64,000 bases of DNA from an uncultured Candidatus Saccharibacteria bacterium. Lineage in GTDB: Bacteria > Patescibacteriota > Doudnabacteria > UBA920. Shown here piece by piece: positions 1,430-15,791 of this stretch. The stretch is taken from NCBI GenBank assembly GCA_964384035.1, contig CAYLIB010000002.1, forward strand, positions 28,704 to 92,703, given 5' to 3'. The notes under the pieces are model-generated. The model did no database searches. It was not told the DNA's origin and saw only the letters and a program-made list of their open reading frames with translations. Position 1 is the first letter of the stretch. Each line of letters begins with the position of its first letter. The position numbers were made by a program, and so were the translations under genes.

Positions 1430-2224
1430 TTAGTCATCGCTTGAGCTAGCGCCACCCCCTCCAGAACTGCCGCCACCAAAACCACCCCAGCCACTCCCGC
1501 TCGAAGAAGATGAAGAAGACCAGGAACTTCCTGAATCGTATGAGCTACCAGAGGAGCTGATGTCTATCCCTAAGCGGTTCAGTATCCATAGGATAATCAG
1601 AAGCACGACAATAATTATCAATATTGTTAGTATTGGGTGACGAGCGAACCACGAAGGCTCCACCTTTGGTTTCTGTCCCGGTGGGTAAGCATGCGTGTCG
1701 AGGTGGTTCTTCACCTCGTGAGCAATGAGCACGAGTGCTTGCGAAAGTGCCCCAGTCTCTCCGGCTTTATACCGGGCAATAAGTGGTTTCCGTTTACCAA
1801 GTATTCCACCATCGCCCGCTGCACCATCGGTTAGCGCGTACTCCAAGCCATAACCCACTTCAATCCGCCATTTTTTTTCTTTGGCGGTGTAGAGAATGAG
1901 TATGCCTCGATCGCGGTCTTCGTTTGAGTAAGTGGTACCTTTCGGTCCAATGCCCCACTTTCGAAACAGGTCATTGGCGAAGTCCTCAACAGAACCCCAA
2001 CCTTCAATGTTGGGCACAGTCACGACTGCGATCTGAATATTTTTCGCTTTGTCGTAATCTTCAAGTTCTTTTTCGAGCGACTCTACATCGCTCTTTTGCA
2101 TGAGGCCCGCGAAGTCATTCACCAATTGCGGAGGGTTAGAAACCTCCGGCAGCTTTGCTTTGTTCTCGGCCATCGCTGTCAGTGAAAGAGCGAACATCGC
2201 CACAAGCAACATTATTTTTTTCAT
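1430..2224 (-). CDS. TPM-domain protein (TLP18.3/Psb32/MOLO-1 phosphatase-like fold) with signal peptide, C-terminal TM segment and Gly/Ser-rich tail
   Basis: NDFAGLM...LEKELEDYDKAKNIQIAVVTVPNIEGWGSVEDFANDLFRKWGIG is the typical TPM/DUF477 core. The likely true start is MKKIM at 2224 (GGAGGG SD) rather than the track start at 2239. The tail is an SSGSSYDSGSS..GGGG low-complexity region. Confidence 0.75.
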   Translation of the reverse strand: MKKIMLLVAMFALSLTAMAENKAKLPEVSNPPQLVNDFAGLMQKSDVESLEKELEDYDKAKNIQIAVVTVPNIEGWGSVEDFANDLFRKWGIGPKGTTYSNEDRDRGILILYTAKEKKWRIEVGYGLEYALTDGAAGDGGILGKRKPLIARYKAGETGALSQALVLIAHEVKNHLDTHAYPPGQKPKVEPSWFARHPILTILIIIVVLLIILWILNRLGIDISSSGSSYDSGSSWSSSSSSSGSGWGGFGGGSSGGGGASSSDD

Positions 2225-2325
2225 TGAAAAACCCTCCAAAATTTGGTTTGTTCGAAAATTTTGCTGGTAAAACCGTTAATTATCGCACTTTTTGTCTATT
2301 TTGTCAATATTTTTATAAATACTAT

Positions 2326-2354
2326 TTGACATATTTTAAAAAAAATGCCATAAT
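2326..2354 (+). promoter_or_regulatory. sigma70-like promoter (TTGACA, 17 bp, CATAAT with upstream TG)
   Basis: ttgaca at 2326-2331 and cataat at 2349-2354, in the divergent intergenic region upstream of the 2403 TPM gene. Confidence 0.4.
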
Positions 2355-2402
2355 ATTATCTTATTTCAGTATCTTAACCACAACTTTACCTGGAGGTAGA
2401 TT

Positions 2403-3746
2403 ATGAATTTTCAGAAAATCATCGCACAAACAACTCTGTTTGTGTTGTTTGCAGTCCTTTCGGTGAATCTCGTTATCGCCCAAAGCCTTCCAAGACCCAA
2501 CGGTTATGTGAATGACTTCGCGGGGAAACTCACCGCCGAAGAGCGAGCTCATCTCGAAAACAAACTGGTGAATTTCGAAAAAAACACCAGCATTGAATTC
2601 GCTATTGCTGTGGTCCCTACCCTAGAAGGGCGAGCACCAAAAGACTTCACCGACAACCTGGCGAGAAGCTGGGGTTTGGGGAAGAAAGACAGGAACAATG
2701 GGATCCTGCTTGTTTGGGCGCCAGTCGAACGCCAAACCTACGCTACAGCAGGTGATGGTCTCCTGGAAGATATAAACAGTGAGGTCATAACAAGTCTGTT
2801 AAACGAGCAGATGAAGCCCTACTTCGTAAAAGGGTATTTCTTCGCCGGACTCGACGCGTTTACAAGCGCGGTTATTTCCCACCTCGGTGAATACCCATGG
2901 GAAAAACGCGCTGAAGTGCGGGGGTTGAATGCGCAGAAAGCGCGGGAAGAAGCCGAGAGGCAACATGAAAGTGACATCCTATTCATGAAAGTGGGTGGCA
3001 CCTTTCTGCTTATATGTGGAGTTTGTCTGTTACTCTACGCTCTCTATGACAACCGGCGTTCCGTTAATCAGCTCAAGGCTAGACTGGGTGTTATTGCCCA
3101 GAATCTAGATAAGGCTTTATCAGAACGGCAGTTAGTGAGGGGTTTAATAGCTTTGCTTAAGGAAGAAATCCCTAACCAAGATGTATCCGAACTCGAGTCA
3201 GAGTTCGAAAAACATCTTGGGAAAGTAGCTGAGTTGCGTTCTGAGCTCGAGTTATTGCTCGGTTCAAAGATCAAAAAAAACCACCGGGAGCAGATTAACG
3301 AGCTTGAGAAGAAGTCAGAAAAAGAGCGGGATCTGAAGAAGGCGATTGAACGCAAGATCGAAAAGATCAAGCACGCCAAAGCAGAAGTTGAAAAGCTGAT
3401 GGCTTCAATTGACCCGAAGATCTTCTCTACCGATGGTATGGAAATACACTCAGGAAGGGAAGAAGAAGTTGCCGAAATGCTCAGTACCGCGCGAGCGAAT
3501 TACGAACAAGGGGTCCAGCTCTTCGGGGTCTCCGGCCAAACGGTGGTGAATTTCCTCATCATCTACAGCCTGCTCTCTGACTCTGTCTCGGGCGCCGAGT
3601 CTGCAACAAACTACGCATCCGGCGCTTCCTCCTACTATTCAAGCAACAGTTCTTCCTACGGTGTCCAACCCTCCCAGCCCACCCAAACAATTAGTTTCGG
3701 CGGGGGAGGCGGCTTCGGCTCCGCAGGCGGAGGAATGAGCTACTAA
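2403..3746 (+). CDS. TPM-domain protein with signal peptide, TM segment, long coiled-coil region and Gly/Ser-rich C-terminus
   Basis: PNGYVNDFAGKLTAEERAHLENKLVNFEKNTSIEFAIAVVPTLEGRAPKDFTDNLARSWGLG is a TPM core. The central E/K/L-rich heptad-like segment and the SSYYSSNSSSYG...GGGGFGSAGGG tail follow. SD ggaggtaga. Confidence 0.75.
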   Translation: MNFQKIIAQTTLFVLFAVLSVNLVIAQSLPRPNGYVNDFAGKLTAEERAHLENKLVNFEKNTSIEFAIAVVPTLEGRAPKDFTDNLARSWGLGKKDRNNGILLVWAPVERQTYATAGDGLLEDINSEVITSLLNEQMKPYFVKGYFFAGLDAFTSAVISHLGEYPWEKRAEVRGLNAQKAREEAERQHESDILFMKVGGTFLLICGVCLLLYALYDNRRSVNQLKARLGVIAQNLDKALSERQLVRGLIALLKEEIPNQDVSELESEFEKHLGKVAELRSELELLLGSKIKKNHREQINELEKKSEKERDLKKAIERKIEKIKHAKAEVEKLMASIDPKIFSTDGMEIHSGREEEVAEMLSTARANYEQGVQLFGVSGQTVVNFLIIYSLLSDSVSGAESATNYASGASSYYSSNSSSYGVQPSQPTQTISFGGGGGFGSAGGGMSY

Positions 3747-3771
3747 ATCTTTGTCTACAGGAAAGGGAAAT

Positions 3772-4134
3772 ATGACAGTTCAAGTAGCAGATAAGTCAGC
3801 AATACTGTTTCGGTTTAGGCAACTGCTTTCACCTGGGCAATTCGTCGAGGACGCCCGAGTCGAGCGGGTCTGCGGAGCAAAGTTGCACCGCTTACTCAGG
3901 CCTTGGTTTTTTAGTAGTCGAGACTTTGCAGAGTCAGACTTGGTCAGCTTGCTCGTCAAATGCAAATTGGCCGAAAATGATGCGGAAGCAATGGAGATTA
4001 TTGAGCTTCTCTGCAACCGCTCAAATCGTATTGACTACCATAGGCTCTACGAATTCTACTTCATCCGGCAGACGGACAAAGCCGGAAAGGTAAATTACAG
4101 AATCGCCTACGATGATCCCAGTGAAGGGGATTGA
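3772..4134 (+). CDS. hypothetical protein (120 aa), GC-rich island gene
   Basis: ORF with SD (aggaaaggga) before the second ATG; no recognisable motif. The track ORF starts at 3751. Confidence 0.5.
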   Translation: MTVQVADKSAILFRFRQLLSPGQFVEDARVERVCGAKLHRLLRPWFFSSRDFAESDLVSLLVKCKLAENDAEAMEIIELLCNRSNRIDYHRLYEFYFIRQTDKAGKVNYRIAYDDPSEGD

Positions 4135-4139
4135 TTTTC

Positions 4140-4175
4140 AGCGCTAAATAGCCTCTATTTAGCGCTCTTTTTATA
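4140..4175 (+). terminator. intrinsic terminator
   Basis: agcgctaaata-gcctc-tatttagcgct followed by cttttt. Confidence 0.6.
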
Positions 4176-4184
4176 TTTTAAGTA

Positions 4185-4213
4185 TTGACAAAAACTCATT
4201 TTTAATTTATAAT
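4185..4213 (+). promoter_or_regulatory. near-consensus sigma70 promoter
   Basis: TTGACA at 4185-4190, 17-bp spacer, TATAAT at 4208-4213. Confidence 0.55.
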
Positions 4214-4302
4214 GTTTGGTTATCTCACGGCGTTAGCTAAGAAAATTCCAATTTTTGGTATCTGGCTTACGTGAATTTCTACAACAAAACGAGGGAATCA
4301 CA

Positions 4303-4983
4303 ATGAAATTGGCAAGATTATTTATTGACCTCGATGACTGCCTAATCAACACAGGCGCTATCATCGAAGCTCATAAGCAGATTTTGCTCCGCAATGGTGT
4401 TTCGCCAGAAGCGTTGGCCGAATACTTTGCGTCTCGGGGAAATGCACCGGACTATTACCGGTCACGCACGTTTTACCTTATGTCTAACGCGGAGGTTGTG
4501 AAAACTCTCTTCGGGCTGAATGAGGAGCAGGTAAAGCGAATCCTCGCCGAAACCACCGCTTTCATTTTCGACTTCAAGCGTTATATCTACGACGATGCTT
4601 GGTTCTTCCTCGAAACTTTCAAAGTCGACCCCAACACAGAAATAGTGCTTGTCACAGTCGGCGGAGAAGGCTGGCAGGGGATAAAGATAAGTGCTTCGGG
4701 TATCCAGCGTTACTTTACACGCGTTGCCATCACTGCCGGCGGTAAAAAACCAGACTCAATTGCGCAGATTCAGGCCGAAGAAGGTGATCAGGGGGTAATA
4801 ACTTACTTCCTCGACGACAAAGGAAGTGAGGTTGCGGGCGTCAAAAAAGCCTTCCCAGACATCACCTGCATTCACGTCAACCGAGGTGATGAAGCGCGCT
4901 ACGCGACCGATAAGTCTGAGAGTCATGACTACGTCGTGAAAGATCTGCGAGAGGCTGTAAACATTATCAAGACTCTGTCATAA
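4303..4983 (+). CDS. HAD-superfamily hydrolase (phosphatase-like)
   Basis: N-terminal FIDLDDCLINT is HAD motif I (DxDx[T/V]). The chosen start is MKLARLF at 4303 with a GAGGGA SD; the track ORF begins at 4255. Confidence 0.7.
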   Translation: MKLARLFIDLDDCLINTGAIIEAHKQILLRNGVSPEALAEYFASRGNAPDYYRSRTFYLMSNAEVVKTLFGLNEEQVKRILAETTAFIFDFKRYIYDDAWFFLETFKVDPNTEIVLVTVGGEGWQGIKISASGIQRYFTRVAITAGGKKPDSIAQIQAEEGDQGVITYFLDDKGSEVAGVKKAFPDITCIHVNRGDEARYATDKSESHDYVVKDLREAVNIIKTLS

Positions 4984-4999
4984 AAGACAGATTTTTTTA

Positions 5000-5029
5000 T
5001 TGACAAAAAAAACTTTTTATGATATAAAT
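5000..5029 (+). promoter_or_regulatory. sigma70-like promoter
   Basis: TTGACA at 5000-5005, 18-bp spacer, TATAAA at 5024-5029. Confidence 0.45.
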
Positions 5030-5083
5030 AAATTTAAATCCAAATAACTTTTGCAATGGTTAACCATAGGAGGAATTAGTTTT

Positions 5084-6256
5084 ATGACACCCACTTTTCA
5101 AATGGAGTCCATTCTGAGGCTAGTTATGAGCGAGCAGGTGGACAGAGCGGAAGCGATCGCGCGACTGAATAAAGAACTATCTAACTGGGGAAATGAGAGT
5201 CTTATTAGGCTCTACACCCAAGCTGTGGAAGACCAAAACTTCTATCTTTCCGCCGAACGTGTAGACGCGTTTCATATTCTCTGTAATTTGCTGGTGTCCC
5301 GAAGGTTAATTAGTATGCGGGAATTCCAAGCAAGAAAGAATATGACTGTCCTATACAATGTTGGTTTCAGTCAGAGCGGTCTTCCTCTGGATATGGAAAC
5401 TGGCGAAGACCTGACCGAAGTTCTGAAGATATACAGTCTTATGAAATTTGGCTCAGTAGCCGACATTGCGTGGTTCGCGAAGAAGGTTTCCGAACGAATC
5501 ATCCAGGGTCTGGTTTCTGGTCAGAGCATCTTGACTGTATTCGAGAAAGCACGCAGTCAAAACCAATACGTGGCTCTGCTCTCGCCGGGTTCCAGGAACG
5601 TCAGGCTTGCGCAAGACTTGGTCTACGTTCAAGTAGTTAAGAAAGTGAATGTTTGGCTAGCTTTAAACGGGTACCCAACCATTATGCTCGTAAGAGCACC
5701 CCGCTTTCAGTCCTCAAAGGCAAATTACGCCGAACTTAGCGTAGCCGAGAGGTTAAGAGAAATGCGAGAGGTCTTACCGGGCGACGACTTCTTCTCCCGT
5801 GGTGTGCACCTGCTTTTCTCCGACGATGTTCGCATTACTGGTGCATCGGCAGATTGGACAGAGATTAACTGTCTCAACAGAGGTGGTTTATCTTTCGGAT
5901 CCATTTTCTGCATGGCCGTAGATCCACTCTTGGTTCAAGACGATCCCGGGGTAGAACAACGCATTAACCACTTTCATGTAACCCCTAAGCTGGACTCAAC
6001 AACCGCATACATATTGAATCAGCCTGGATTCATTCCGGTCCAGCGCTTACTGAGACTCCTGCTGAATGTCTCAAATCGAGAAAGTCTCGCTGGTTTCCTT
6101 GGTGGGGTTTATGACCATGCGTTGGTTGAAGTCTATAGTGGTGCTATGTCGAATGACTACCTGGCCGACGATCGGTACGCTCCCTCGCTCGATATTTGGA
6201 AGAAAGAGTTGCATCGTCGAAATCTCGTAGACAGTAATGGATTGTTGCTGGGTTAG
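5084..6256 (+). CDS. phosphoribosyltransferase (PRTase)-like protein, paralogous to the C-terminal two-thirds of the next gene
   Basis: Contains a PRPP-binding-type motif LLFSDDVRITGAS (four hydrophobics, DD, xxTG) and SPGSRNV. Collinear similarity to the downstream protein (YSLMKFGSVADIAWFAKKV vs YSLMKFGGVHEVKWFASRV; LNQPGFIPVQRLLRLLL vs LNQPDFRPVQRMLRLIL). The start is ATG 5084 after AGGAGG. Confidence 0.6.
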   Translation: MTPTFQMESILRLVMSEQVDRAEAIARLNKELSNWGNESLIRLYTQAVEDQNFYLSAERVDAFHILCNLLVSRRLISMREFQARKNMTVLYNVGFSQSGLPLDMETGEDLTEVLKIYSLMKFGSVADIAWFAKKVSERIIQGLVSGQSILTVFEKARSQNQYVALLSPGSRNVRLAQDLVYVQVVKKVNVWLALNGYPTIMLVRAPRFQSSKANYAELSVAERLREMREVLPGDDFFSRGVHLLFSDDVRITGASADWTEINCLNRGGLSFGSIFCMAVDPLLVQDDPGVEQRINHFHVTPKLDSTTAYILNQPGFIPVQRLLRLLLNVSNRESLAGFLGGVYDHALVEVYSGAMSNDYLADDRYAPSLDIWKKELHRRNLVDSNGLLLG

Positions 6257-6271
6257 TAATATGTATTTACC

Positions 6272-6297
6272 TATGCTTGGAGCATAGGTTCTTTTTT
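6272..6297 (+). terminator. intrinsic terminator
   Basis: cctatgct-tgga-gcatagg followed by ttcttttttt. Confidence 0.6.
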
Positions 6298-6305
6298 TGT
6301 AAAAA

Positions 6306-6334
6306 TTGACAAAAACCCATTTTTAAAGTATAAT
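6306..6334 (+). promoter_or_regulatory. near-consensus sigma70 promoter
   Basis: TTGACA at 6306-6311, 17-bp spacer, TATAAT at 6329-6334. Confidence 0.55.
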
Positions 6335-6484
6335 CAGCCGTTTAAATTGTGTGTATTTATAATCGGCAGTGCTAATTTCCGCTGAATAAGCTGTTTGCAC
6401 GGCACTCTTTTTCAGTAGCTAAAGTTCTTTAGCTTCTGAAAATCGGTTTTTCTAAAAGAATACAAAATTTGGAGGAAAGGAAAA

Positions 6485-8332
6485 ATGGATTCAAGACAAA
6501 GATTCGCGAGTCTCGCCGTCCATACCATCAATCAGCCCAACGAATTAAGTCATCCGTTTCAACAGCGTTACAGCCGAATGAAGCACGGTGACCCTAAGGC
6601 CATTGTGGAATCGGCCGGCAAGCTGATTTACGCAATGAAGCAGGATCCGGTTATCGCCGAAGCAATCGAAAGAGGCGACGACATCATCCTGACATCATCT
6701 GCCTTCGGAAGTGTACCCACGGCGATCTATGCAGTAGTCTTAGCAATGGTTCCGCAACTCGCGGAAATCGGCGTTAAGGCTGAAGTTGTTAAAATCAATC
6801 GTTCAGGCAACTTCCGGGTAAACAACTACGGAAGTATGAACGCCACCGAAAGAGGCGCAAGTCTCAAAGAAAGAAAAATCAGTCTTTCCGAGGAGGACCT
6901 CAACAGGATCAGGGGCAAGCTCGTGGTGGTCGTGGACGATATTAAAGTCACGGGTAGTCACGAAATCGCTATTACCCAACTCCTTGAAAGCACGGAAGTC
7001 CGCTTGGTCAGGTTCTGCTACTTAGTAAGTTTTACAAAAGAACTAGCAGAAACCTTCCCACAAGCCGAAGACCTCTTCAATAGCGCTGTCGTGCGCACAC
7101 TCGCAGACCTGCTTCATTTCACCAACGATGAGTTTGTGGTTAACGCCCGGACCATCAAAATGATTTTGTCTACAAAGGAATACGTGGACAAAACCAAGGC
7201 TGAAATGCTCGCCGATCTCTACGAGTATCTGGCCCACGACGACGACCAAACAATTCTGAAGTTCTACCGCGCGGCCACTTCCGAAGATGGCTATTGCTAC
7301 TTCCCCGAGTACGTTGACGGCTTCCATGTGCTTGCAAACGTCGCGATAGCTCGGGGTCTCGTTTCACTCAAAGAGTTCCAGCAAGTTAAAAATGCTGTTG
7401 TGGTCAACAACCTCACGGTTGGCGGCCGTGGTACGTACTTGGATGTAGACTCAGGCGATAACCTGGGTGAGACAACGCGCATGTATAGCCTAATGAAGTT
7501 CGGTGGCGTGCATGAAGTTAAGTGGTTCGCCAGTCGTGTAGCCAAGCAGGTAATAGGCGAACTCAAAACGCCAGGCAGTGGCTTCAGGAAACTCTTCGAG
7601 CGAGCAAGGGACAACAACGAACATGTGGTTATGCTTACTCCGGGTTCAAGGAACGTTGTGTCTGCACAACATTCCATTTTTGAAACCGCGGTTAAGTCTA
7701 TAAACGCGTGGTTAGCACTTAACGGATACCCGACAATCATCTTCTGTAAGTTGACCCGATTTTCTTCAGGCGCAGCTAACTACTCTGAGCTGAGCGTGTC
7801 GGAGAGGGTTAAGGAACAGCGCAGTAAAGGTTTAGGAGTATCTGCACTACCTAGCGAAGCTTTTTTTGCTCCAGGGGTACATATCATTTTCGCAGATGAT
7901 GTTCGTATCTCAGGGGCTTCCGCGGATCATTTCGAGATTCATGCGTTACTGCATGGTGCCCTGTCATGCAGTTCCATCTACTGTCTGATGGTCGATCCTC
8001 GTATCGCCATCGCCAATCCGGCATTCGAAAACGAGCTGAATCAGGTCGTCATTAAGGGTGGTTTGGATGATCAAGTTGCCTACATCCTTAATCAGCCAGA
8101 TTTCAGACCCGTTCAAAGAATGCTCCGACTCATTCTTCAAGAATCGAACAGGGGAACGCTGGCTACTTTCTTAGAGAACCTCGCCTCTACCGAAGCAATC
8201 TCTCGTATCTACGTGGCTGCTTTAGAAAGCGAGTTCTATCAAGATAGTCGTTACAGAGATTCCGTTCCTTTACTTTCTGCCGAGCTACGGAAACGTGGGG
8301 TATTGGATGAAGACGGTTTGGTAATTTGCTAG
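6485..8332 (+). CDS. fusion protein with two PRTase-type domains (N-terminal PRTase plus a module homologous to the preceding gene)
   Basis: The N-terminal domain carries the classic PRPP loop KLVVVVDDIKVTGSH. The C-terminal module carries IIFADDVRISGAS and aligns with the 5084-6256 product. SD ggaggaaagg. Confidence 0.65.
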   Translation: MDSRQRFASLAVHTINQPNELSHPFQQRYSRMKHGDPKAIVESAGKLIYAMKQDPVIAEAIERGDDIILTSSAFGSVPTAIYAVVLAMVPQLAEIGVKAEVVKINRSGNFRVNNYGSMNATERGASLKERKISLSEEDLNRIRGKLVVVVDDIKVTGSHEIAITQLLESTEVRLVRFCYLVSFTKELAETFPQAEDLFNSAVVRTLADLLHFTNDEFVVNARTIKMILSTKEYVDKTKAEMLADLYEYLAHDDDQTILKFYRAATSEDGYCYFPEYVDGFHVLANVAIARGLVSLKEFQQVKNAVVVNNLTVGGRGTYLDVDSGDNLGETTRMYSLMKFGGVHEVKWFASRVAKQVIGELKTPGSGFRKLFERARDNNEHVVMLTPGSRNVVSAQHSIFETAVKSINAWLALNGYPTIIFCKLTRFSSGAANYSELSVSERVKEQRSKGLGVSALPSEAFFAPGVHIIFADDVRISGASADHFEIHALLHGALSCSSIYCLMVDPRIAIANPAFENELNQVVIKGGLDDQVAYILNQPDFRPVQRMLRLILQESNRGTLATFLENLASTEAISRIYVAALESEFYQDSRYRDSVPLLSAELRKRGVLDEDGLVIC

Positions 8333-8356
8333 ATCAAATTCATCCAGGGGTAAAGA

Positions 8357-9001
8357 ATGAAAACGATTCTTCAAGATTTCGACGGAGTGATCTTCGACTG
8401 TGTCAGGTATATTGCAGACTTCAAGTCAGCAATTGTAAGTCGTGGAGTCTCGCAAGAGGCGCTCTCTGCTTACTTCAAGGCGCCTAGTCAATTTCCCCAA
8501 TATGCCTCTAGAGCCTATTCACTAATTAAGCACCCTGAAATACGACGGGAATGGTTAGGGGAATTAGGGATAGAGGCCGTTGATTACGCCATAGAAACTG
8601 TGGTCAAAAGGGGTGTGGATTATGTCTTCCCAGACGCTTGGGATCTTCTCAAGGTCGCACATAAGTCAGGAAGGCAGATATTACTCACTCAAGGAGCCAG
8701 AGAGGCACAGGAGTTGAAAGTTGTAAACTCGGGAGTCTGTCAGTATTTTGATCATTTACTGATGGGCACAGCCTGTAAGGGCCAGGTTATTTCTGAGTTT
8801 CTAGGCGATCAAACACAGGCTGTCGAAGGCTGGTTTTTGGACGATCGTGGTAAAAATCTCACCGTAGTCAAACAAGTATGTCCTAACATTAGGACTATCC
8901 TCGTCTGGCGTGAAAACGGTGCATATAACCACGAAAACCCAACCGACTACGACCATAAGGTGGAAAACCTAGACGAAGCTAGGCGTTTAATCTATTCATA
9001 G
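8357..9001 (+). CDS. HAD-superfamily hydrolase (phosphatase-like)
   Basis: N-terminal ILQDFDGVIFDC is HAD motif I, and the size (214 aa) fits a HAD phosphatase. Confidence 0.65.
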   Translation: MKTILQDFDGVIFDCVRYIADFKSAIVSRGVSQEALSAYFKAPSQFPQYASRAYSLIKHPEIRREWLGELGIEAVDYAIETVVKRGVDYVFPDAWDLLKVAHKSGRQILLTQGAREAQELKVVNSGVCQYFDHLLMGTACKGQVISEFLGDQTQAVEGWFLDDRGKNLTVVKQVCPNIRTILVWRENGAYNHENPTDYDHKVENLDEARRLIYS

Positions 9002-9028
9002 GACTACCCAACGGTAGTCTTTTTTTAT
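9002..9028 (+). terminator. intrinsic terminator
   Basis: gactacc-caac-ggtagtc followed by ttttttt. Confidence 0.6.
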
Positions 9029-9031
9029 TGC

Positions 9032-9060
9032 TTGACAAAAATAACTAAAAAATGTATACT
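9032..9060 (+). promoter_or_regulatory. near-consensus sigma70 promoter
   Basis: TTGACA at 9032-9037, 17-bp spacer, TATACT at 9055-9060. Confidence 0.5.
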
Positions 9061-9208
9061 CGGATTTAATTTTTCTATGATTTTAGGGTTATGGACCAAA
9101 TTCGGTATTAAATACTGCTTTGGTTCATGGCCGTAAGTTGAAGCCTAAAAACTTCGTCTGCTTCGGTTGTCTAACAAAAGTTCGAAAATCCTTTAGGAGG
9201 TAGAACAA

Positions 9209-10381
9209 ATGAAATCCACGTTTCGTGTTGTGTTGAGTTTGCTCATCACAGTCCTTTTCTCAACTTTCGCTTTCGCTGGTGAGCCCGCTACAGGCTCCCT
9301 CCTGGACAATGCTCACCCGCACGCGCGGGCCTGGCTCATCGGTGTCTTCGCGGTCATCATCGTCGGCTTCCTGGTCTTCGACCTTGGCTTCATGAACAAA
9401 AAAGCCCACGGCGTTACCACCAAAGCCGCCACGCTTCAGACCCTCTTTTGGATCGCCGTTGCCTGCGGGTACGGTGGGCTTATCTACTACTTCGTCGGCC
9501 ACGAACCCGCTGCTCAGTTCTTCAGCGCGTACATCACCGAGAAAATGCTCTCCGCAGACAACCTCATGGTCATTATGATGCTCTTCATGTTCTTCGACGT
9601 GAAGGAGGCATTTCAGCACCGTGTGCTGTACTGGGGTATTCTCGGCGCCGTCGTTCTGCGCGGTTTGTTCATTGGCAGTGGTACGCTCATCGTTAGTCTG
9701 TTTCACCCCGTTCTTTACCTGTTCGGTGCGGTTCTCATTTGGTCCGGCATCAAACTCATGGCAAGCGGAGACGACGAGGAGGAGCAGGATTTCGAGAAGA
9801 ACAGAACTCTTATCTTTCTGAAGAAATGGCTCCCGCTCAGTAGCGGACCACACACAGGTCATTTTTTCACCATTGAAAACGGCAAGAAAGTCGGCACTAT
9901 TCTGTTGCTGACCTTGGCGATGGTTGAGGTTACCGATCTCATCTTCGCTGTGGACTCAATTCCCGCAGTCTTCGCCATCACGACCGATTTCTTCATCGCT
10001 TTCACCAGTAACATTTTCGCCGTTATGGGACTGCGGGCGCTATTCTTCATCGTTGAAAAAGTGCTCAAGCAATTCCCGCACTTGCAAAAAGGCATTGCCT
10101 TCGTGCTGGTATTCATCGGTGGCAAAATGTTCCTGGACCTCGTGGATCCCGCCGTCGGCTTCCTGAGTAAGACCTTTGGCTTCGCACATACCGAAGGGAG
10201 TTGGGAATATCATCTGTCATCAGTCCAGTCTTTCATGGTTATCATCGTTGCCCTTGGTCTCGCCATGGGTTACTCGGTGATCTCGGTGAGAATGGGTTGG
10301 ACTACGATTGATGATCCCGAAGCCGCCTTCGACGATTCCGATCTGAAACCCGCCACACCGGCAACAAACGAAAACAGCTAA
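9209..10381 (+). CDS. terC: TerC-family integral membrane protein
   Basis: Polytopic membrane protein with the TerC-family hallmarks, including Asp/Glu residues inside TM helices (MVEVTDLIFAVDSIPAVFAIT...) and about 390 aa. It directly precedes two TerD genes. Confidence 0.7.
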   Translation: MKSTFRVVLSLLITVLFSTFAFAGEPATGSLLDNAHPHARAWLIGVFAVIIVGFLVFDLGFMNKKAHGVTTKAATLQTLFWIAVACGYGGLIYYFVGHEPAAQFFSAYITEKMLSADNLMVIMMLFMFFDVKEAFQHRVLYWGILGAVVLRGLFIGSGTLIVSLFHPVLYLFGAVLIWSGIKLMASGDDEEEQDFEKNRTLIFLKKWLPLSSGPHTGHFFTIENGKKVGTILLLTLAMVEVTDLIFAVDSIPAVFAITTDFFIAFTSNIFAVMGLRALFFIVEKVLKQFPHLQKGIAFVLVFIGGKMFLDLVDPAVGFLSKTFGFAHTEGSWEYHLSSVQSFMVIIVALGLAMGYSVISVRMGWTTIDDPEAAFDDSDLKPATPATNENS

Positions 10382-10388
10382 ATACTAC

Positions 10389-10416
10389 CCGAGCCTAAAA
10401 ACTCGGCTTTTTTATT
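10389..10416 (+). terminator. intrinsic terminator
   Basis: ccgagcc-taaaaa-ctcggc followed by ttttttatt. Confidence 0.6.
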
Positions 10417-10419
10417 CCT

Positions 10420-10448
10420 TTGACAAAATCCCCAAAAACTTCTAAATT
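10420..10448 (+). promoter_or_regulatory. sigma70-like promoter
   Basis: TTGACA at 10420-10425, 17-bp spacer, TAAATT. Confidence 0.45.
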
Positions 10449-10539
10449 TGGGTCTTGTCTCAGAAGTTATCATCAAATACCAGCTTTAGGCTTTACCGCC
10501 TAAACAGGCAAAAACCAAATACAAGCCAAGGAGGAAATT

Positions 10540-11175
10540 ATGGCTTTCCTAATTCAAAAAGGCGGATCATTCCAAATCTCCAAGGGGATTTTCAATCTCG
10601 GAATTGGGTGCAAATGGGATCCGCAACTCAATCACTCGGAAGAAGAGTTCGACATTGACGTCCACGCCTTCGCTCTCAGGAATCACACAGGGTTCGATCG
10701 TAATGGGAGCCATGCGCTCACATACGCGAACGTCGCAAATTCCAGAAACCCGGACGGCTTGCTGGTCGAAAACAGCGACGGCTCGTTCCAGACGCGCGAC
10801 GGCTCCATGCATTCGCGTGGTGACAACAAGACGGGCGAGACCAAACCCGGCGAAGACGCCGAGTATCTCACGATCTTTACGCAGAAACTGCCAAAAGAGA
10901 TCGACGAGATCGCTCTCTATATAACCATTCACGATGCCGTGAAGCGCAAGCAGAATTTTGGACGCGTCAGGAATGCCAAAATCCACATTGACGACGCCGG
11001 CTCACACAGCGTGCTGGCCAAGTACGACCTGAGTACCGACTTCCCAGACGCAACCTGCGTCCATGTCGGTTCTTTCCTCCCAGACCCGAGCGGTGGAGGG
11101 TGGTCGTTCCAGGCCGCGGACTCGCCGTCCAACGCAAGTCTGTACCAGGTTCTTGAAGGTTACAAATTGGTCTAA
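10540..11175 (+). CDS. terD: TerD-domain protein (tellurium-resistance/stress family)
   Basis: MAFLIQKGGSFQISKG...NLGIGCKWDPQ...FDIDVHAFAL and DNKTGETKPGEDAEYLTIF...IDEIALYITIHDA are a TerD fold with the calcium-binding GDN-TGEG..E motifs. SD aaggagg. Confidence 0.8.
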   Translation: MAFLIQKGGSFQISKGIFNLGIGCKWDPQLNHSEEEFDIDVHAFALRNHTGFDRNGSHALTYANVANSRNPDGLLVENSDGSFQTRDGSMHSRGDNKTGETKPGEDAEYLTIFTQKLPKEIDEIALYITIHDAVKRKQNFGRVRNAKIHIDDAGSHSVLAKYDLSTDFPDATCVHVGSFLPDPSGGGWSFQAADSPSNASLYQVLEGYKLV

Positions 11176-11180
11176 TAAAA

Positions 11181-11215
11181 AACTCGTTCCAGTTTTGAAC
11201 GAGTATTTTTTATTA
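11181..11215 (+). terminator. intrinsic terminator
   Basis: actcgttc-cagttttg-gaacgagt followed by attttttatt. Confidence 0.6.
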
Positions 11216-11244
11216 ATTAGCTTATTTATAAGGAATTTAGTCTA

Positions 11245-11272
11245 TTGACAAATTCTGAAAAATCTTTATAAT
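11245..11272 (+). promoter_or_regulatory. near-consensus sigma70 promoter
   Basis: TTGACA at 11245-11250, 16-bp spacer, TATAAT at 11267-11272. Confidence 0.5.
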
Positions 11273-11452
11273 TACGAGTCTTAATAAAGAAATTTAAAGA
11301 CAAAGATCTGCACTTTAAAACTAGATCTCGAGAAAACTCGCAATCGCCCGAATTACTTTCGGCTCGAGGTTTAGCTTAGTGTGTAGGGTCTTGTGTCAAA
11401 AACGCAGGGCCAAGTAATCAACAACAAAATTCCATTCGGAGGAAAACAGATC

Positions 11453-12055
11453 ATGGAAATTTCCAAAGGCGAATCGTTTCCCGTCAAAGGTGGCGGCGCA
11501 GATTACAGCGGTAATTACTTCGGTGGCGGATGGGACGCCGGCGACGGTTATGACCTGGACATCCACGTCATCGGACTGAAGGGTGGCAAACCGGTCATGT
11601 CCCACGTCCTGAGCTGGTTCAACAGCCCGCAGTACAACGGCGCAGGCTTGCTGGACTACGATGCCGCAACGGGCACGTTCAAGACCAAGGACGGCTCGCT
11701 TGTTCACAACAAAGACAATCGCACCGGCGAGGGCGACGGCGACGACGAGAACGTCATTCTCCACCTGGACAAAGTCCCGACGGACATTGACGAATTGTTG
11801 TTCATCGTTGACATTTACGAGGCGAAGAAGAACGGCCAAGACTTCGGCAAGGTCAAAAATGCGTTCGTTCGCGTCGTGCAGGGCACCAATCCCGATGGCA
11901 AAGAAACGATTCGCTACAACCTGTCGAACGACTACGCCGGTAAGACCTGCGTGCAAGTCGGCTCACTGACTCGCGCCGCCGGAACCACCTGGACGTTTAC
12001 CGCCCAAGGCATCGGCTTCACGGGCACGATCCAACAGGTCATGGAGACGTTCTAA
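11453..12055 (+). CDS. terD: TerD-domain protein (second paralog)
   Basis: Canonical TerD Ca-binding motif DNRTGEGDGDDENVILHLDKVP...IDELLFIVDIYEA. The start is MEISKG at 11453 after GGAGGA; the track ORF at 11393 lacks an RBS. Confidence 0.8.
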   Translation: MEISKGESFPVKGGGADYSGNYFGGGWDAGDGYDLDIHVIGLKGGKPVMSHVLSWFNSPQYNGAGLLDYDAATGTFKTKDGSLVHNKDNRTGEGDGDDENVILHLDKVPTDIDELLFIVDIYEAKKNGQDFGKVKNAFVRVVQGTNPDGKETIRYNLSNDYAGKTCVQVGSLTRAAGTTWTFTAQGIGFTGTIQQVMETF

Positions 12056-12073
12056 TCTCCGACTAACCGAAAA

Positions 12074-12118
12074 GGGGTGTCAACCGGAAAACTCTCTCGG
12101 TTGCACCCCCTCTTTTTT
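12074..12118 (+). terminator. intrinsic terminator
   Basis: Long GC-rich stem ggggtgtcaaccg / cggttgcacccc followed by tctttttt. Confidence 0.6.
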
Positions 12119-12134
12119 ATTTCAAGGTGGTGAA

Positions 12135-13289
12135 ATGCCAGATCGCAAACCAACAATAATTCAGCTACCTGGGCGGGATACAAATGAGCTCCCGTCTCTG
12201 GCCGAAGAACGGAAGCCTACGGTCATCAACTTGAATCCAAATCAATGTGGTGAAACAGATGGGCCTAGAGTGCCGCATATTCTCCACCTTGAAGAACACG
12301 AAGATGTCCGTGACACCCAAAGACTACCTACAGTCATTATGGTCCCCAAAGTCGTGGAAGAGGTCCCGGCACCAGCCAGAACGCCTACAGTGGTAAAGTT
12401 CCTTTTCGAGGAAAAACCACTCGTGCCTTCTCCGGCTGTCGCCGCGACTATTCTGAAACTTCCCGGGGCAGAAATTCGGGCGAGATTGAAAGTAAGCGAT
12501 GGCGACCTCGCCGAGCTATTCCCAAATGTGCCTGATGCAATCCGGGAAAAAGCTAGGGTGGTAGTCGTAAGCACGAATGTTGATACGCTGTTTACCCAGA
12601 CCTGCGGGTCGTGGGGGCAGTTAAGTCAACAGCAAATGCTTTCACTCTCTGAAGAAATCGCCAAATTGAATTCGCATAATCTGCTGGCAGAAATGCGGGC
12701 AGAGATGCGCGCGATTTACGATTTCTTCATGACTTTCAAAGCAAGAGTCCAAGAAGAACCAAAAAGTATGCTAGATTTCCTTTCCAGCAAAACTCCCAAA
12801 ACTGCCAAACAGCGGTTCGACGAGCTTATGCTGGAATTAGAGAATAAAGCATCCAAGTTGGGTGCTCGTCTGCCGGAGATTCAAAAACTCCAATTGCAGA
12901 TCGCTGAAACTTCTGGTAAGCTCGCAAAGGTTCGTGAGTCCATGCAAGTGGACATGGTGGCTGGGCAGCTCGTCGAATTCAGAGGGATGTTAGGCGAAGT
13001 TAAAGCTGACAAAGAGTTTGTAAAGTCTGATCTTGAAATTCTAAACAGTCGAATCGAAAGCCTAAGGGCTTCGGTTAGTACTGTAGATATTTTGCGAGAC
13101 CAGCTCACTGCTCTCTATTTGGAAGTCGCAACTTTGCAGACAACTATCCAGAATACTCTATTGGTCGAAGTTCCAGAATGGCGGTTATCCGTCAGTCTTA
13201 CAGGCTTCGAACAGTCGGGTAGGGTTTCAAATAGTCAGGGTTGGTCTTTCGTGGACCAGCTCATTCAAAAACTGAAGTCAAAACCATAA
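12135..13289 (+). CDS. hypothetical Pro-rich / coiled-coil protein (possibly TelA-like; unproven)
   Basis: 384 aa. The N-terminal 120 aa are Pro/Val-rich with a repeated PTV(I/V) motif (KPTIIQLP, KPTVINL, LPTVIMVP, TPTVVKF), and the C-terminal 250 aa are predicted helical coiled coil. Size and position between TerD and the vWA gene recall TelA/KlaA-type proteins of ter operons. No motif is recognised with certainty. Confidence 0.5.
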   Translation: MPDRKPTIIQLPGRDTNELPSLAEERKPTVINLNPNQCGETDGPRVPHILHLEEHEDVRDTQRLPTVIMVPKVVEEVPAPARTPTVVKFLFEEKPLVPSPAVAATILKLPGAEIRARLKVSDGDLAELFPNVPDAIREKARVVVVSTNVDTLFTQTCGSWGQLSQQQMLSLSEEIAKLNSHNLLAEMRAEMRAIYDFFMTFKARVQEEPKSMLDFLSSKTPKTAKQRFDELMLELENKASKLGARLPEIQKLQLQIAETSGKLAKVRESMQVDMVAGQLVEFRGMLGEVKADKEFVKSDLEILNSRIESLRASVSTVDILRDQLTALYLEVATLQTTIQNTLLVEVPEWRLSVSLTGFEQSGRVSNSQGWSFVDQLIQKLKSKP

Positions 13290-13299
13290 CGAGGGAAAT

Positions 13300-14013
13300 A
13301 TGTTCGAAGTTACGAAAGAAGCGCAGAAAGTCAAAAACTTTCTCATTTCAAAGATGGTCAGAAACGTCAAAGCCGAAGTCATCGGTCTCGTTGATAAGAG
13401 CGGCTCCATGCAGGGTTTGTATAAGTGTGGTGCCGTCCAGGAAGCAATCCAGCGCGTTCTGCCAGTCGGCTTGAATTTCGACGACAACGGCAACGTGGAC
13501 GTGTTCACTTTCGCCGACGGCGAAGGTAGTGTCTTCGAAGCCGCAGGTCTCGACACGAACAACTTCGAAGGCTACGTCCAGCGGGAAATTCTCAACAAGA
13601 ACGGTCATTGGGGTGGCACCGACTATGCGCCGGCCATTACCGCGGTTCTGAAGTCGAAAGGGTTCGCCAAGAAATCTGGGGGTGGGTTTTTCGGTGGAGG
13701 AAGTCTGTCCCTGCAGGAGAACTCGACGTCCGGTTATCCGGCGCTTATCTACTTCTTCACGGATGGCGCGAATGACGACGAAAGCGCGACCGAGAAGCTT
13801 CTTGAGGCGATGCAGTATGCACGAGTGAATGCCTACGTCTTGTTCGTTGGCATTGGAGACAACCCGTTCCGCTTCTGTATTCGCGTTGCTGATAAATTCG
13901 ACAACACTGGATTCGTCCGCGTGTCAGACCTCGCCGGCGTCGCCAACAACGACAAGATTTACGAGATGCTGTTGCCAGACGAACTTTGCTGCTGGCTGCG
14001 CAACAAGAAATAA
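13300..14013 (+). CDS. von Willebrand factor A (vWA) domain protein, TerY-like
   Basis: MIDAS motif VDKSGSMQG (DxSxS), then TFADGEG... and FFTDGANDDE, which resemble further MIDAS loops. 237 aa, adjacent to TerD/TerC as in terY-type loci. Confidence 0.7.
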   Translation: MFEVTKEAQKVKNFLISKMVRNVKAEVIGLVDKSGSMQGLYKCGAVQEAIQRVLPVGLNFDDNGNVDVFTFADGEGSVFEAAGLDTNNFEGYVQREILNKNGHWGGTDYAPAITAVLKSKGFAKKSGGGFFGGGSLSLQENSTSGYPALIYFFTDGANDDESATEKLLEAMQYARVNAYVLFVGIGDNPFRFCIRVADKFDNTGFVRVSDLAGVANNDKIYEMLLPDELCCWLRNKK

Positions 14014-14033
14014 GCTTCTAACCAAGAAGCATC

Positions 14034-14061
14034 TACCGAGCTAACAACTCGGTCTTTTTTT
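14034..14061 (+). terminator. intrinsic terminator
   Basis: accgag-ctaacaa-ctcggt followed by cttttttta. Confidence 0.6.
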
Positions 14062-14062
14062 A

Positions 14063-14092
14063 TTGACTTTTTCTGGTTTTTTATGTATATTT
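14063..14092 (+). promoter_or_regulatory. sigma70-like promoter
   Basis: TTGACT at 14063-14068 and TATATT at 14087-14092, 18-bp spacer. Confidence 0.4.
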
Positions 14093-14169
14093 ATTTGTTT
14101 TTAGGAGTTTTGTCGTAAAACACGAAATTCTCGTATCGGTTAAATAAACCTAAATTAAGGAGAGGACAA

Positions 14170-15000
14170 ATGAACAATCCGGTAGTAATGGCCGAATCGC
14201 TAATTTTCGCTCTGGTTGTGTTGACTTACGCTTTCGCAGCCAAGCTATGTTGGGACAGGGTTAGCAAAATGCACGCTATTCTTCGTTACAACAACACAGC
14301 CTATGGTATCAGGACATTCTCCCTCATGACGGCAATTTCGATTGCGCTTTATGGGACCCTTAAAACGGTTAGTCAGCAGGAATTCGGTAATTATTTCTTG
14401 CAACTGGTAATTAATGGGTTAGTGGTAACAATCTTTGTTCTGATTGCCCAGTTTGTAAATGATGTTTTCATTATCACTGGGTTAAATAACAACGAAGCAG
14501 TCGCAAGAAAAAATAATGCAGTAGCAGTGACCGAAACAGGAAGTTCTATCGCTACGGCAGTAATAGCTTACGGAGCTTTCTCAGGTGGCTTAGGAAGTCG
14601 TTTTGTGCAGTCCGTAGTCTTCCTGATACTAGGTCAAGCCGTGCTAATTGCTGTTTTTCATCTGTTCGACTGGTTACACCCAGCTGATCTTCTCGGGAAT
14701 ATTCGCGCCGGAGAAGTACCGAGTGCAATTGTGAGTTCTGGAATGCTAATAGCTGTGAGTCTCATTCTGAAGAGTGCTATTCAGGGGCAGTTCTTTGGGT
14801 GGGGGAAAGGATTCGCTGAGTTCTTTTTTGCAGCGGCTATGGGTCTTGGTCTGCTTGTAACCGCTTACAATTTTCTTTGTCGGAGACTCCCGTGGGTCCC
14901 AAACATGGGAGAGGAAGTTAAGGAAAGCGAGAGCGCATTCGTTAGTACCGCAGGTTTGTTGATTTTTGCTTTCATGATTTCAGTCGCATTTCAAAACTAA
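14170..15000 (+). CDS. polytopic integral membrane protein, hypothetical (Gly-zipper-rich; internally repeated)
   Basis: 276 aa with about 8 hydrophobic helices and an apparent internal duplication of GxxxA/G helices. SD taaggagagg. Intermediate GC. Confidence 0.55.
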   Translation: MNNPVVMAESLIFALVVLTYAFAAKLCWDRVSKMHAILRYNNTAYGIRTFSLMTAISIALYGTLKTVSQQEFGNYFLQLVINGLVVTIFVLIAQFVNDVFIITGLNNNEAVARKNNAVAVTETGSSIATAVIAYGAFSGGLGSRFVQSVVFLILGQAVLIAVFHLFDWLHPADLLGNIRAGEVPSAIVSSGMLIAVSLILKSAIQGQFFGWGKGFAEFFFAAAMGLGLLVTAYNFLCRRLPWVPNMGEEVKESESAFVSTAGLLIFAFMISVAFQN

Positions 15001-15039
15001 ATACGGAATTTATATTCCGCTTTTTTTATACACTAGACT

Positions 15040-15075
15040 AATAAAACGCGTACGTACGCGTTTTATTAGTCAATA
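15040..15075. terminator. bidirectional terminator (perfect palindrome aaaacgcgtacgtacgcgtttt) between convergent genes
   Basis: taataaaacgcgtacgtacgcgttttatta has T-runs on both strands. Confidence 0.6.
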
Positions 15076-15092
15076 AAAAAACTAGCCATTCG

Positions 15093-15791
15093 CTAGTGTT
15101 TATTCCCGAAAGAAAATCTTGTACCAAATATTAATCCGAAAGTTCTTTCCGGTACCACCATATCCGGATTAATAAATATTTCGAAATCAGATTCCTTATT
15201 GGGTCTTAGTCTGAATTCCGCACCTATTCGACCCAAGTGATGGTGTCCAGTCTTGAGTGAGTCGGCATGGAAGTATAACCACTTACCCAATATTTGCTGG
15301 CTTATCCTTTGGTGAAAAGTTTTCTCGTAACCGTTCCCAAAAGTTATCTCCGGAAAAAATTCTGTCTCTCTGTGGCCTATGAGTAGTAGTTTTATACTCG
15401 TGCCAAGATAAGCTTGTCCTCGGGTTGTCGCCCCTGCAAATCCTGATACAGAAAATTTGTCTTCCGTACTTTTATAGCTTGGACCAACACCAAAACGACC
15501 ATCGTTTACCAGACCTTTCACGTAAAAATACTGTCCCGTATATGCAAAGCCAAGTTTATTGGTTGCTTTATGTGTGTGACAATCTAACTCACTTAAACCC
15601 TCCCATTCCGGTGGTTCCACTGCTCTGCTCGATCTTCCGGTTTCGATTGACACCCGGCAAGATGTATTGTATTTATGATGGTTAGATTTGTCTGTATTGT
15701 CAGTTATCTCTTGAGCGTTGGTTTTTCCAACAGATAACAAAATAATAAGCAGACAAAGGGGTGAGTGCTTGTGTAATAATCTTATAGACAT
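15093..15791 (-). CDS. secreted hypothetical protein (signal peptide, beta-rich)
   Basis: MSIRLL...LLSVGKTNAQE signal sequence; GGAGGA SD upstream on the minus strand. Confidence 0.55.
   Translation of the reverse strand: MSIRLLHKHSPLCLLIILLSVGKTNAQEITDNTDKSNHHKYNTSCRVSIETGRSSRAVEPPEWEGLSELDCHTHKATNKLGFAYTGQYFYVKGLVNDGRFGVGPSYKSTEDKFSVSGFAGATTRGQAYLGTSIKLLLIGHRETEFFPEITFGNGYEKTFHQRISQQILGKWLYFHADSLKTGHHHLGRIGAEFRLRPNKESDFEIFINPDMVVPERTFGLIFGTRFSFGNKH

Follow-up and report, generated by a model that had tools for sequence, protein, structure and literature searches.

Ter-dependent stress-response systems, predicted in silico in 2012, are built around a biosynthetic module of two or five enzymes that always includes a phosphoribosyltransferase (PRTase) and a HAD phosphatase; a second PRTase, an ATP-grasp enzyme and a TIM barrel complete the five-enzyme form, and the predicted product is a (pyrimidine-derived) ribonucleoside (PMC11994780). 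In the model of these systems, the PRTase and HAD enzymes make a signal, TerB and TerD act as sensors, TerC works within the membrane, and the sub-membrane structures are made up of TelA and the TerF vWA protein (PMC7824862). TerB accompanies the biosynthetic module almost always, as a frequent and not obligatory partner (PMC11994780). Here we analyse a 64,000-nucleotide stretch of contig CAYLIB010000002.1 (the window), which carries a GC-rich block of about 13.5 kb that begins somewhere in 683-1430 and ends at about 14-15 kb. With a probability of roughly 0.6, the block encodes a Ter-type, membrane-associated stress/defence system of the PRTase_3 and HAD class in a genome of the candidate phyla radiation (CPR), most likely transferred beside a tRNA-Pro gene. 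We base the identity of the system on the linkage of PRTase_3 with TerD, vWA, TelA and TerC across scattered genomes, which is the signature of the 2012 Ter-dependent systems; the cluster is a new example of that kind, not a new system.

The 13 block proteins were scanned against the Pfam, NCBIfam and PADLOC profile libraries. Together with the list of open reading frames (ORFs), these searches upheld the gene series, the gene order and the strands (all forward but for the first TPM gene) given by a first-pass annotation made from the sequence alone. The genes are as follows, with GC3 denoting the G+C fraction at third codon positions.

1430-2239, - strand: TPM-domain membrane protein 1 (PF04536, 2e-24; GC3 0.50)
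2403-3746, + strand: TPM-domain membrane protein 2 (PF04536, 8e-30)
3751-4134, + strand: orphan protein of 120-127 aa, no family match
4255-4983, + strand: HAD-superfamily hydrolase a, HADa (TIGR02253, 6.6e-5, a weak match)
5051-6256, + strand: single-module PRTase_3 (PF15610, 3e-9; likely start 5084)
6485-8332, + strand: double PRTase_3, two modules (PF15610, 1.9e-31, two stretches)
8357-9001, + strand: HAD-superfamily hydrolase b, HADb (PF00702, 1e-5)
9209-10381, + strand: TerC-family integral membrane protein with an N-terminal signal sequence (PF03741, 4e-48)
10540-11175, + strand: TerD paralog 1, TerD1 (PF02342, 3e-27)
11393-12055, + strand: TerD paralog 2, TerD2 (PF02342, 2e-35; likely start 11453)
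12135-13289, + strand: divergent TelA-like coiled-coil protein of 384 aa, no direct Pfam match
13300-14013, + strand: vWA protein of the TerF-C-terminal type (PF10138 vWA-TerF-like, 3e-30)
14170-15000, + strand: DUF350 (YjfL-family) membrane protein (PF03994, 3.5e-26; GC3 0.43)

The TerC, TerD, PRTase, HAD and TPM assignments that the first-pass annotation had put forward for checking were all recovered, and its interpretation of the set as a Ter-dependent system agrees with both the profile matches and the recurrence of the linkage in scattered genomes. The vWA protein, which it had called TerY-like, matches PF10138 and is of the TerF-C-terminal type instead. The coiled coil that it had seen in 12135-13289 was borne out, and the protein could be identified further as a divergent TelA relative; the protein at 3751-4134, listed there as unknown, has no match in Pfam, NCBIfam or PADLOC. 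We take PF15610 (PRTase_3) and PF10138 to originate from the Mol Biosyst 2012 paper.

The locus resembles the 2012 two-enzyme Ter system, compared here through secondary accounts, in placing PRTase_3 and HAD beside TerD, TerC, a TelA-like protein and a TerF-type vWA, in having no ATP-grasp or TIM-barrel gene and in being scattered across phyla. It differs in its three PRTase modules (one single and two fused), its two HAD paralogs, the lack of TerB, the additional TPM pair, DUF350 and orphan gene, the CPR host, and a TelA-like protein too divergent for Pfam. As the first-pass annotation had noted for the island, no ATP-grasp or CitE-like TIM-barrel protein was found among the 13 block proteins, nor among the 33 other window proteins scanned, a set that leaves out about eight outside ORFs of at least 150 aa. 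This absence is expected because the two-enzyme PRTase and HAD form has already been described, and the description of the cluster as unusually compact or minimal does not fit a locus with three PRTase modules and two HADs.

The classical terZABCDEF/terWXY locus (IncHI2 plasmid R478, E. coli O157:H7, Klebsiella pK2044) likewise combines TerC, TerD paralogs and vWA with PRTase and HAD enzymes, is also horizontally mobile and has a predicted nucleoside-like product. Unlike the window cluster, it contains TerB, TerA/Z/E/F, a TerY-type vWA, an ATP-grasp enzyme and a CitE-like TIM barrel, none of which we found here, and its PRTases belong to other families (PRTase_1/PRTase_2). Only this classical locus has known tellurite, phage and colicin phenotypes. 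The Bacillus yceCDEFGH stress operon (three TerD, TerC, YceG and the TelA-like YceH) shares TerD paralogs, TerC and a TelA-family protein with the block; B. subtilis-type yce operons have neither PRTase/HAD nor vWA, unlike the window cluster, and the B. altitudinis 3W19 yce operon adds a PRTase, a HAD, a CitE-like enzyme and StiP.

Compact mobile cassettes with PRTase, HAD, TerD/TerC/TerF and TelA also occur in jumbo phages, such as Acinetobacter phage vB_AbaM_ME3 (PMC7824862). In contrast to these, the block contains no phage genes, and the double PRTase has no relative among 2.9 million viral contigs, on which ground a phage origin of the cluster was rejected. TPM proteins with a coiled-coil/low-complexity tail and DUF350 are partners in PspA-type envelope-stress operons (PMC11237479), where they serve, as they might here, as membrane accessories. 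The block differs from those operons in lacking PspA/IM30, band-7 and polyamine genes, and the link of TPM and DUF350 to Ter genes is seen in the window cluster only.

PRTase_3 modules and their conserved neighbourhood

The double PRTase_3 consists of two type-I PRTase folds that are joined and capped by helical domains, and its AlphaFold2 (AF2) model is confident, with a predicted local distance difference test (pLDDT) score of 88.3. Both of its phosphoribosyl pyrophosphate (PRPP)-binding loops are intact (VVVVDDIKVTGSHE; HIIFADDVRISGASAD). The single PRTase_3 (5051-6256) is homologous, at 41% identity, to the C-terminal module of the double PRTase_3 and carries the PRPP loop HLLFSDDVRITGASAD; in an alignment of homologs, the loop signature of a hydrophobic run, DD and then TG or SG is invariant across both module types. 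The nearest solved folds to the double PRTase_3 in Foldseek are 6-oxopurine/adenine PRTases and PyrR (E 5e-5, TM-score 0.4-0.5). In profile comparisons with PDB sequences, only the PRPP loop resembles solved PRTases (E about 0.05), and matches of the PRTase_3 proteins to NCBIfam apt fall well under the cut-off.

The Pfam name of PF15610, 'PRTase ComF-like', together with PilB, PilC and PilM genes at 33-37 kb, might be taken to mean that the PRTase_3 proteins are ComF-like competence factors acting with the type IV pilus/DNA-uptake genes of the window, and not metabolite synthases. We give this idea hardly any credence: the ComF model TIGR00201 reaches 18 bits where 233.55 are required and covers the PRPP loop only, the PRTase_3 genes lie 20 kb from the pilus genes and within the compositionally foreign block, and it is HAD, TerD, TelA and vWA genes, rather than com genes, that are conserved around them.

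Both HADs carry DxD and DD motifs; their catalytic motifs, like those of the three PRTase modules, are intact. HADa (motifs DLDD... and ...LDDKG; likely start 4303) and HADb are paralogs with 28% identity (2e-16). HADb, whose profile support is marginal (26.5 bits against a PF00702 cut-off of 26.4), is the conserved partner directly downstream of the double PRTase, with orthologs in three other loci (L091, at 38% identity, L092 and L003); HADa is 36% identical to the HAD that adjoins the double PRTase in L003 and L092.

Close relatives of the double PRTase are few: a word-indexed search of 5.8e9 proteins returned 19, and a scan of 185,579 species-representative genomes, a collection from which the host species is absent, with a 6-sequence alignment returned 21 loci, the best at 40% identity. 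The relatives contain one, two or three modules per protein (390-421, 615-658 and 927-952 aa, respectively), and the closest of them also belong to the CPR. One locus (L096) has three adjoining PRTase_3 genes (336, 684 and 421 aa). Counted by locus, the number of modules goes up to 4.

The closest counterpart of the cluster lies on L091, a contig from another sample, where LigA is followed by PRTase, double PRTase, HAD, a TerC::TerD fusion, two TerD, a TelA-like protein and vWA. Identity to the window proteins is 55% for the double PRTase, 51% for TerC, 59% for TerD1, 50% for TerD2, 50% for the TelA-like protein and 55% for vWA, and lower for HADb (38%) and the single PRTase (35%). The fusion (L091, 6435-8234) unites TerC and a TerD domain in one 599-aa protein, which directly supports physical cooperation between TerC and TerD. 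L092 carries a rearranged version (double PRTase, HAD, a 415-aa protein, TerD, TelA-like, vWA, TerC). Beyond these, within 10 kb of PRTase_3 in the 21 species-representative loci we found TerD in 13, a TerF-type vWA in 6, either of the two in 16 and TerC in 2; their hosts include Moraniibacteriota, Collierbacteria, Saccharimonadia, Bacteroidia, Pseudomonadales, Betaproteobacteria and several Actinomycetes. TerD and/or vWA also lie within 10 kb of PRTase_3 in five of six metagenomic loci, L091 and L092 included, and three of the six bring TerB (in L094), TelA, vWA, TerD and HAD. The gene-neighbourhood comparison suggested in the first-pass annotation thus yields a linkage of PRTase_3 with TerD, vWA, TelA and TerC that recurs in scattered genomes, and the conserved core corresponds to 5051-14013 of the window.

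A PgpA (phosphatidylglycerophosphatase A) gene directly adjoins the Ter/vWA genes in two unrelated loci, L092 (10344-12958) and L094 (15932-16495), and the L092 cluster also abuts BipA.

TerD2 aligns with Klebsiella TerD (PDB 2KXT) at 6e-27, and the canonical DNRTGEGDGDDE stretch, which we take from the 2KXT work to be Ca2+-binding, is identical in the alignment; TerD1 is divergent at the putative Ca-binding stretch (GDNKTGETKPGEDAE). The vWA protein carries a DKSGS metal-ion-dependent adhesion site (MIDAS) motif. For the TelA-like protein, a direct Pfam search gave nothing even at E<=10, and the indexed search found just two non-identical relatives, one of which (in L091, 50% identical) has a recorded TelA match. 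A three-sequence profile searched against 1.84e9 representatives retrieved 55 proteins; 26 of the 53 scanned match PF05816 TelA, the best at 9e-23. We therefore read 12135-13289 as a divergent TelA relative, on the strength of these matches and of the L091 ortholog. Its N-terminus (12135-12420) contains four to five short [RK]xPT[IV][IV] repeats (RKPTIIQL, RKPTVINL, RLPTVIMV, RTPTVVKF). Since the TelA-like relatives in L091 (50% identical) and L092 (20% identical) retain them, these repeats may serve as a docking motif.

The remaining block proteins fall outside this core. TPM protein 1 is laid out as signal peptide, TPM domain, transmembrane segment and Gly/Ser tail, with a likely start at 2224; TPM protein 2 has a signal peptide, TPM domain, transmembrane segment, long coiled coil and low-complexity Gly/Ser tail, a YdjH-like architecture. 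On a metagenome contig with the identical sequence (L001), gene calling gives TPM protein 1 a length of 264 aa and places the starts of four genes further in, at 3772, 4303, 5084 and 11453; Shine-Dalgarno sequences in folded leaders agree with the starts at 4303 and 11453. The orphan at 3751-4134 has zero tblastn matches across all comparison loci fetched, and its AF2 single-sequence model (120 aa, pLDDT 52.7) is unusable.

Transcription units and structured leaders

Most intergenic gaps of the block contain a hairpin and T-run terminator followed by a near-consensus sigma-70 promoter, and these terminator/promoter sites recur as repeat families (D3, D5, D6, D7). The predicted elements are listed below; promoter matches are given out of 12 consensus positions, and leader z-scores compare the minimum free energy (MFE) of folding with that of shuffled sequences.

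2307-2279, - strand: promoter, promoter/terminator scan (11/12)
2326-2354, + strand: promoter, same scan (11/12)
4140-4213, + strand: terminator hairpin and sigma-70 promoter (TTGACA-17-TATAAT), same scan (12/12, at 4185)
4998-5027, + strand: promoter, identified through repeat family D3 alone and absent from the scan output
6306-6334, + strand: promoter, same scan (12/12)
9032-9060, + strand: promoter, same scan (11/12)
9061-9208, + strand: structured TerC leader, about 150 nt (MFE z=-3.6)
10420-10448, + strand: promoter, same scan (10/12)
11245-11272, + strand: promoter, same scan (12/12)
11273-11452, + strand: structured TerD2 leader, 180 nt, two hairpins and then a Shine-Dalgarno sequence (MFE z=-4.7)
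14063-14091, + strand: promoter, same scan (10/12)

This pattern implies at least eight or nine transcription units, with the predicted units being TPM1; TPM2 and the orphan; HADa; the single PRTase; the double PRTase and HADb; TerC; TerD1; TerD2, TelA-like and vWA; and DUF350. A Ter module "fused" to a PRTase/HAD cassette, as the block had first been described, is at odds with at least eight separate units.

The separate transcription of these units is one of three observations that would suit a reading as two unrelated functions lying side by side, with the Ter genes serving metal (Mn/Ca) or envelope stress and the PRTase/HAD genes serving nucleotide salvage in a CPR bacterium that lacks de novo synthesis. 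The others are that purine salvage PRTases have the closest folds to the PRTase and that Mn export and metalation are known roles of TerC proteins; two published accounts tie the TerC family to Mn export and to the metalation of secreted enzymes (PMC12096827, PMC10197570). We nevertheless consider this split improbable, as many unrelated genomes keep PRTase_3 together with TerD, vWA or TelA, salvage PRTases resemble it in sequence at the PRPP loop alone (the same E of about 0.05, with apt far below its cut-off), and salvage enzymes do not share its multi-module build with helical domains.

The cluster on L091 also has structured leaders, at 9064-9334, 8235-8439 and 6264-6434 (z -5.3, -4.6 and -2.8), the first being the counterpart of the TerD2 leader and the last that of the TerC leader. 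The first hairpin of the TerD2 leader aligns between the window and L091 with two compensatory changes; a covariance model of this leader, run on 27 sources, recovered nothing beyond the two sequences it was trained on. An Rfam search over 4100-15100 at E<=0.5 gave no match, and the TerC leader is therefore not a yybP-ykoY riboswitch. The presence of an own promoter and terminator for each unit, and of leaders on TerC and TerD2, suggests separate and possibly post-transcriptional control. At its most ambitious, the arrangement could be a self-contained signalling circuit in which an unusual nucleoside-like messenger made by the three PRTase_3 modules and two HADs (or Ca/Mn) is sensed by the conserved TerD2 and TerC leaders. 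These would then be cis-regulatory RNAs of a new class, controlling how much of the membrane complex is made. We regard this circuit as a long shot; if true, its use in a CPR episymbiont might be phage defence or interaction with the host cell.

Composition, borders and origin of the block

The GC content in 1-kb windows is 44-50% over 1-14 kb and mostly 35-41% elsewhere, and the GC3 of the 13 block genes averages 0.558 (range 0.43-0.73) against 0.337 in 38 other genes of the window (Mann-Whitney p=1.8e-7), which confirms the enrichment reported in the first-pass annotation. DUF350 is intermediate (0.43), and only two of the 38 other genes are outliers. Gaps within the block are AT-rich, with a GC content of mostly 15-38%; the exception is the 79-nt gap between TerD2 and the TelA-like gene (48%). 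A histidine-kinase gene at 31-459 has a background GC3 of 0.385, which places the left border inside the window, between a tRNA-Pro gene and position 1430. The features at this border are the following.

609-682, - strand: tRNA-Pro(UGG) (ARAGORN; Rfam tRNA, 62 bits), at the left edge of the GC-rich block
683-1130, no strand assigned: about three tandem units of ~170 nt (repeat search and blastn-short)

The tandem units contain partial copies of the 5' part of the tRNA-Pro at 795-849 (91% identity) and 1007-1081 (95%) and a GC-rich hairpin unit at 712-768, 880-936 and 1058-1114; a 17-nt copy of the tRNA-Pro 3' end lies at 517-533. The neighbourhood of the tRNA-Pro looks like the scars of repeated rearrangement or integration. 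Att-like repeats bounding the block were considered and rejected, the tRNA-Pro copies lying near the tRNA only, with none at the far end.

Third codon positions distinguish two groups of block genes. In the TPM, HAD, PRTase and TelA-like genes, G3 and C3 are 0.23 and 0.29 against a background of 0.15 and 0.18, and a joint rise of G3 and C3 is what foreign origin would give. In TerC, the two TerD and vWA, C3 is 0.45 and G3 is 0.24, A-ending codons for Val, Leu and Ile nearly vanish, and Lys and Glu stay A-preferring, a pattern more suggestive of selection on codon usage. The window contains neither ribosomal nor EF-Tu genes.

In L095 (16182-19724), GC3 is 0.83 for TerD and 0.73 for vWA against 0.31 for PRTase and 0.29 for TelA, and in L094 (6074-9572 and 13083-15871) and L092 (5078-10187), TerD, vWA and TerC are likewise much richer in GC3, through C-ending codons, than PRTase, TelA and the flanks. 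En-bloc transfer does not explain such a gene-by-gene mosaic in unrelated AT-rich genomes.

These observations raise the alternative that the GC-rich signal reflects codon selection in highly expressed Ter genes and that the cluster is an old resident of the lineage. The 45% C but only 24% G at third positions of TerC, TerD and vWA, the GC3-rich TerD and vWA beside PRTase and TelA in L095, L094 and L092, the near-consensus promoters and the CPR hosts of the closest PRTase relatives all speak for it. We nonetheless regard it as unlikely because all 12-13 contiguous genes are shifted, including TPM, the orphan and the enzymes, with both G3 and C3 up; because outliers outside the block are so few; because the orthologous cluster on L091 has a GC3 near the background of its own host; and because the border coincides with a tRNA that carries duplication scars. 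The block as a whole was probably acquired by horizontal transfer beside the tRNA-Pro, and the extra bias of TerC, TerD and vWA has another cause, possibly high expression. The foreign composition and the tRNA-Pro border speak for the horizontal acquisition proposed in the first-pass annotation; part of the GC3 excess of TerC, TerD and vWA need not stem from transfer.

Raised GC is also seen at 24-29 kb, at 39-40 kb (tRNAs) and at 62-63 kb. An ORF of 338 aa at 62165-63181 (+ strand; GC 0.54, GC3 0.60, no Pfam match) is the only other strong compositional outlier among the 38 non-block genes. The ORF of 1382 aa at 24170-28318 (+ strand) has no Pfam match even at E<=10; its GC of 0.46 is raised because of its amino-acid composition, its GC3 of 0.36 being at background.

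The remainder of the window encodes glycogen genes, the type IV pilus genes mentioned above, G6PD and glycosyltransferases. Its BipA/TypA has unnamed relatives at 82-85% identity, and the named relatives among the best 120 matches are all 'Candidatus Doudnabacteria' or 'Patescibacteria group' (77-81%). The AT-rich, small-genome setting inferred at first fits this placement in the CPR/Patescibacteria. We found no paper that discusses Ter systems in Patescibacteria.

Proposed function of the cluster

In the model of Anantharaman, Iyer and Aravind (2012, via PMC7824862), the PRTase modules would couple a base-like nucleophile to PRPP, and the HAD phosphatases would strip the 5'-phosphate to release a diffusible nucleoside-like compound. 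The Ca2+-binding TerD proteins would act as sensors or adaptors, and TerC (of a metal-transport/metalation family), the TelA-like protein and vWA would form a sub-membrane complex that alters the membrane or ion state under phage, toxin, metal or oxidant stress. The TPM pair and DUF350 are probably accessory membrane-assembly factors and not part of the core.

Several results weigh against our assignment of the block to a transferred Ter system of this kind. PADLOC returned only coiled-coil or PRPP-loop noise and matched no known defence-system model, and none of the 13 block proteins matches TerB (PF05099). The TPM, DUF350 and orphan genes lie beside PRTase_3 in no other locus, and because they never recur there we treat them as accessories of the window copy. 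No paper that we found names the compound made by Ter-linked PRTase/HAD enzymes, in agreement with the first-pass remark that this chemistry is not known to have been biochemically defined. At the right end of the block there is no tRNA-fragment repeat, the copies all lying within 500 nt of the tRNA, and profile searches detected no integrase among the block proteins. The C-biased extra GC3 of TerC, TerD and vWA recurs gene by gene elsewhere and for that reason need not reflect transfer. Finally, a search of metagenome contigs with the GlgP flank gave relatives at <=50% identity (nearly all full-length ones at 33-38%), none with Ter genes nearby; no close relative of the host was among these matches, which are too distant for an empty-site comparison.

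The role could be specifically anti-phage (or directed against plasmids or colicins), with infection triggering the nucleoside-like signal and TerC, TerD, TelA and vWA blocking entry or aborting infection. This proposal is a narrower form of our best explanation and leaves the system itself the same. Phage inhibition and colicin resistance are phenotypes of classical ter loci, in the reading of the Aravind group the system counters invaders (PMC7824862, PMC8115787), and the block is compositionally foreign and lies by a tRNA, like many defence islands. We hold it only tentatively, at well below even odds: the PADLOC matches are noise, no other defence genes adjoin the block, and viral contigs hold no relatives.

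The broader assignment, a Ter-type stress/defence system of the PRTase_3 and HAD class, leaves the existing picture of the Ter system unchanged. Within that picture, the cluster and its relatives form a rare clean sub-type, with PRTase_3 in one, two or three fused modules together with HAD and with neither ATP-grasp nor TIM barrel, and the sub-type should be simpler to reconstitute. Its cultured actinomycete carriers in our census (Isoptericola luteus NEAU-Y5, Flexivirga endophytica, Leekyejoonella antrihumi and Sediminihabitans luteus DSM 25478) are amenable to genetics. For a bacterium of the CPR, a group known for small genomes, a 13.5-kb stress/defence block is a large investment.

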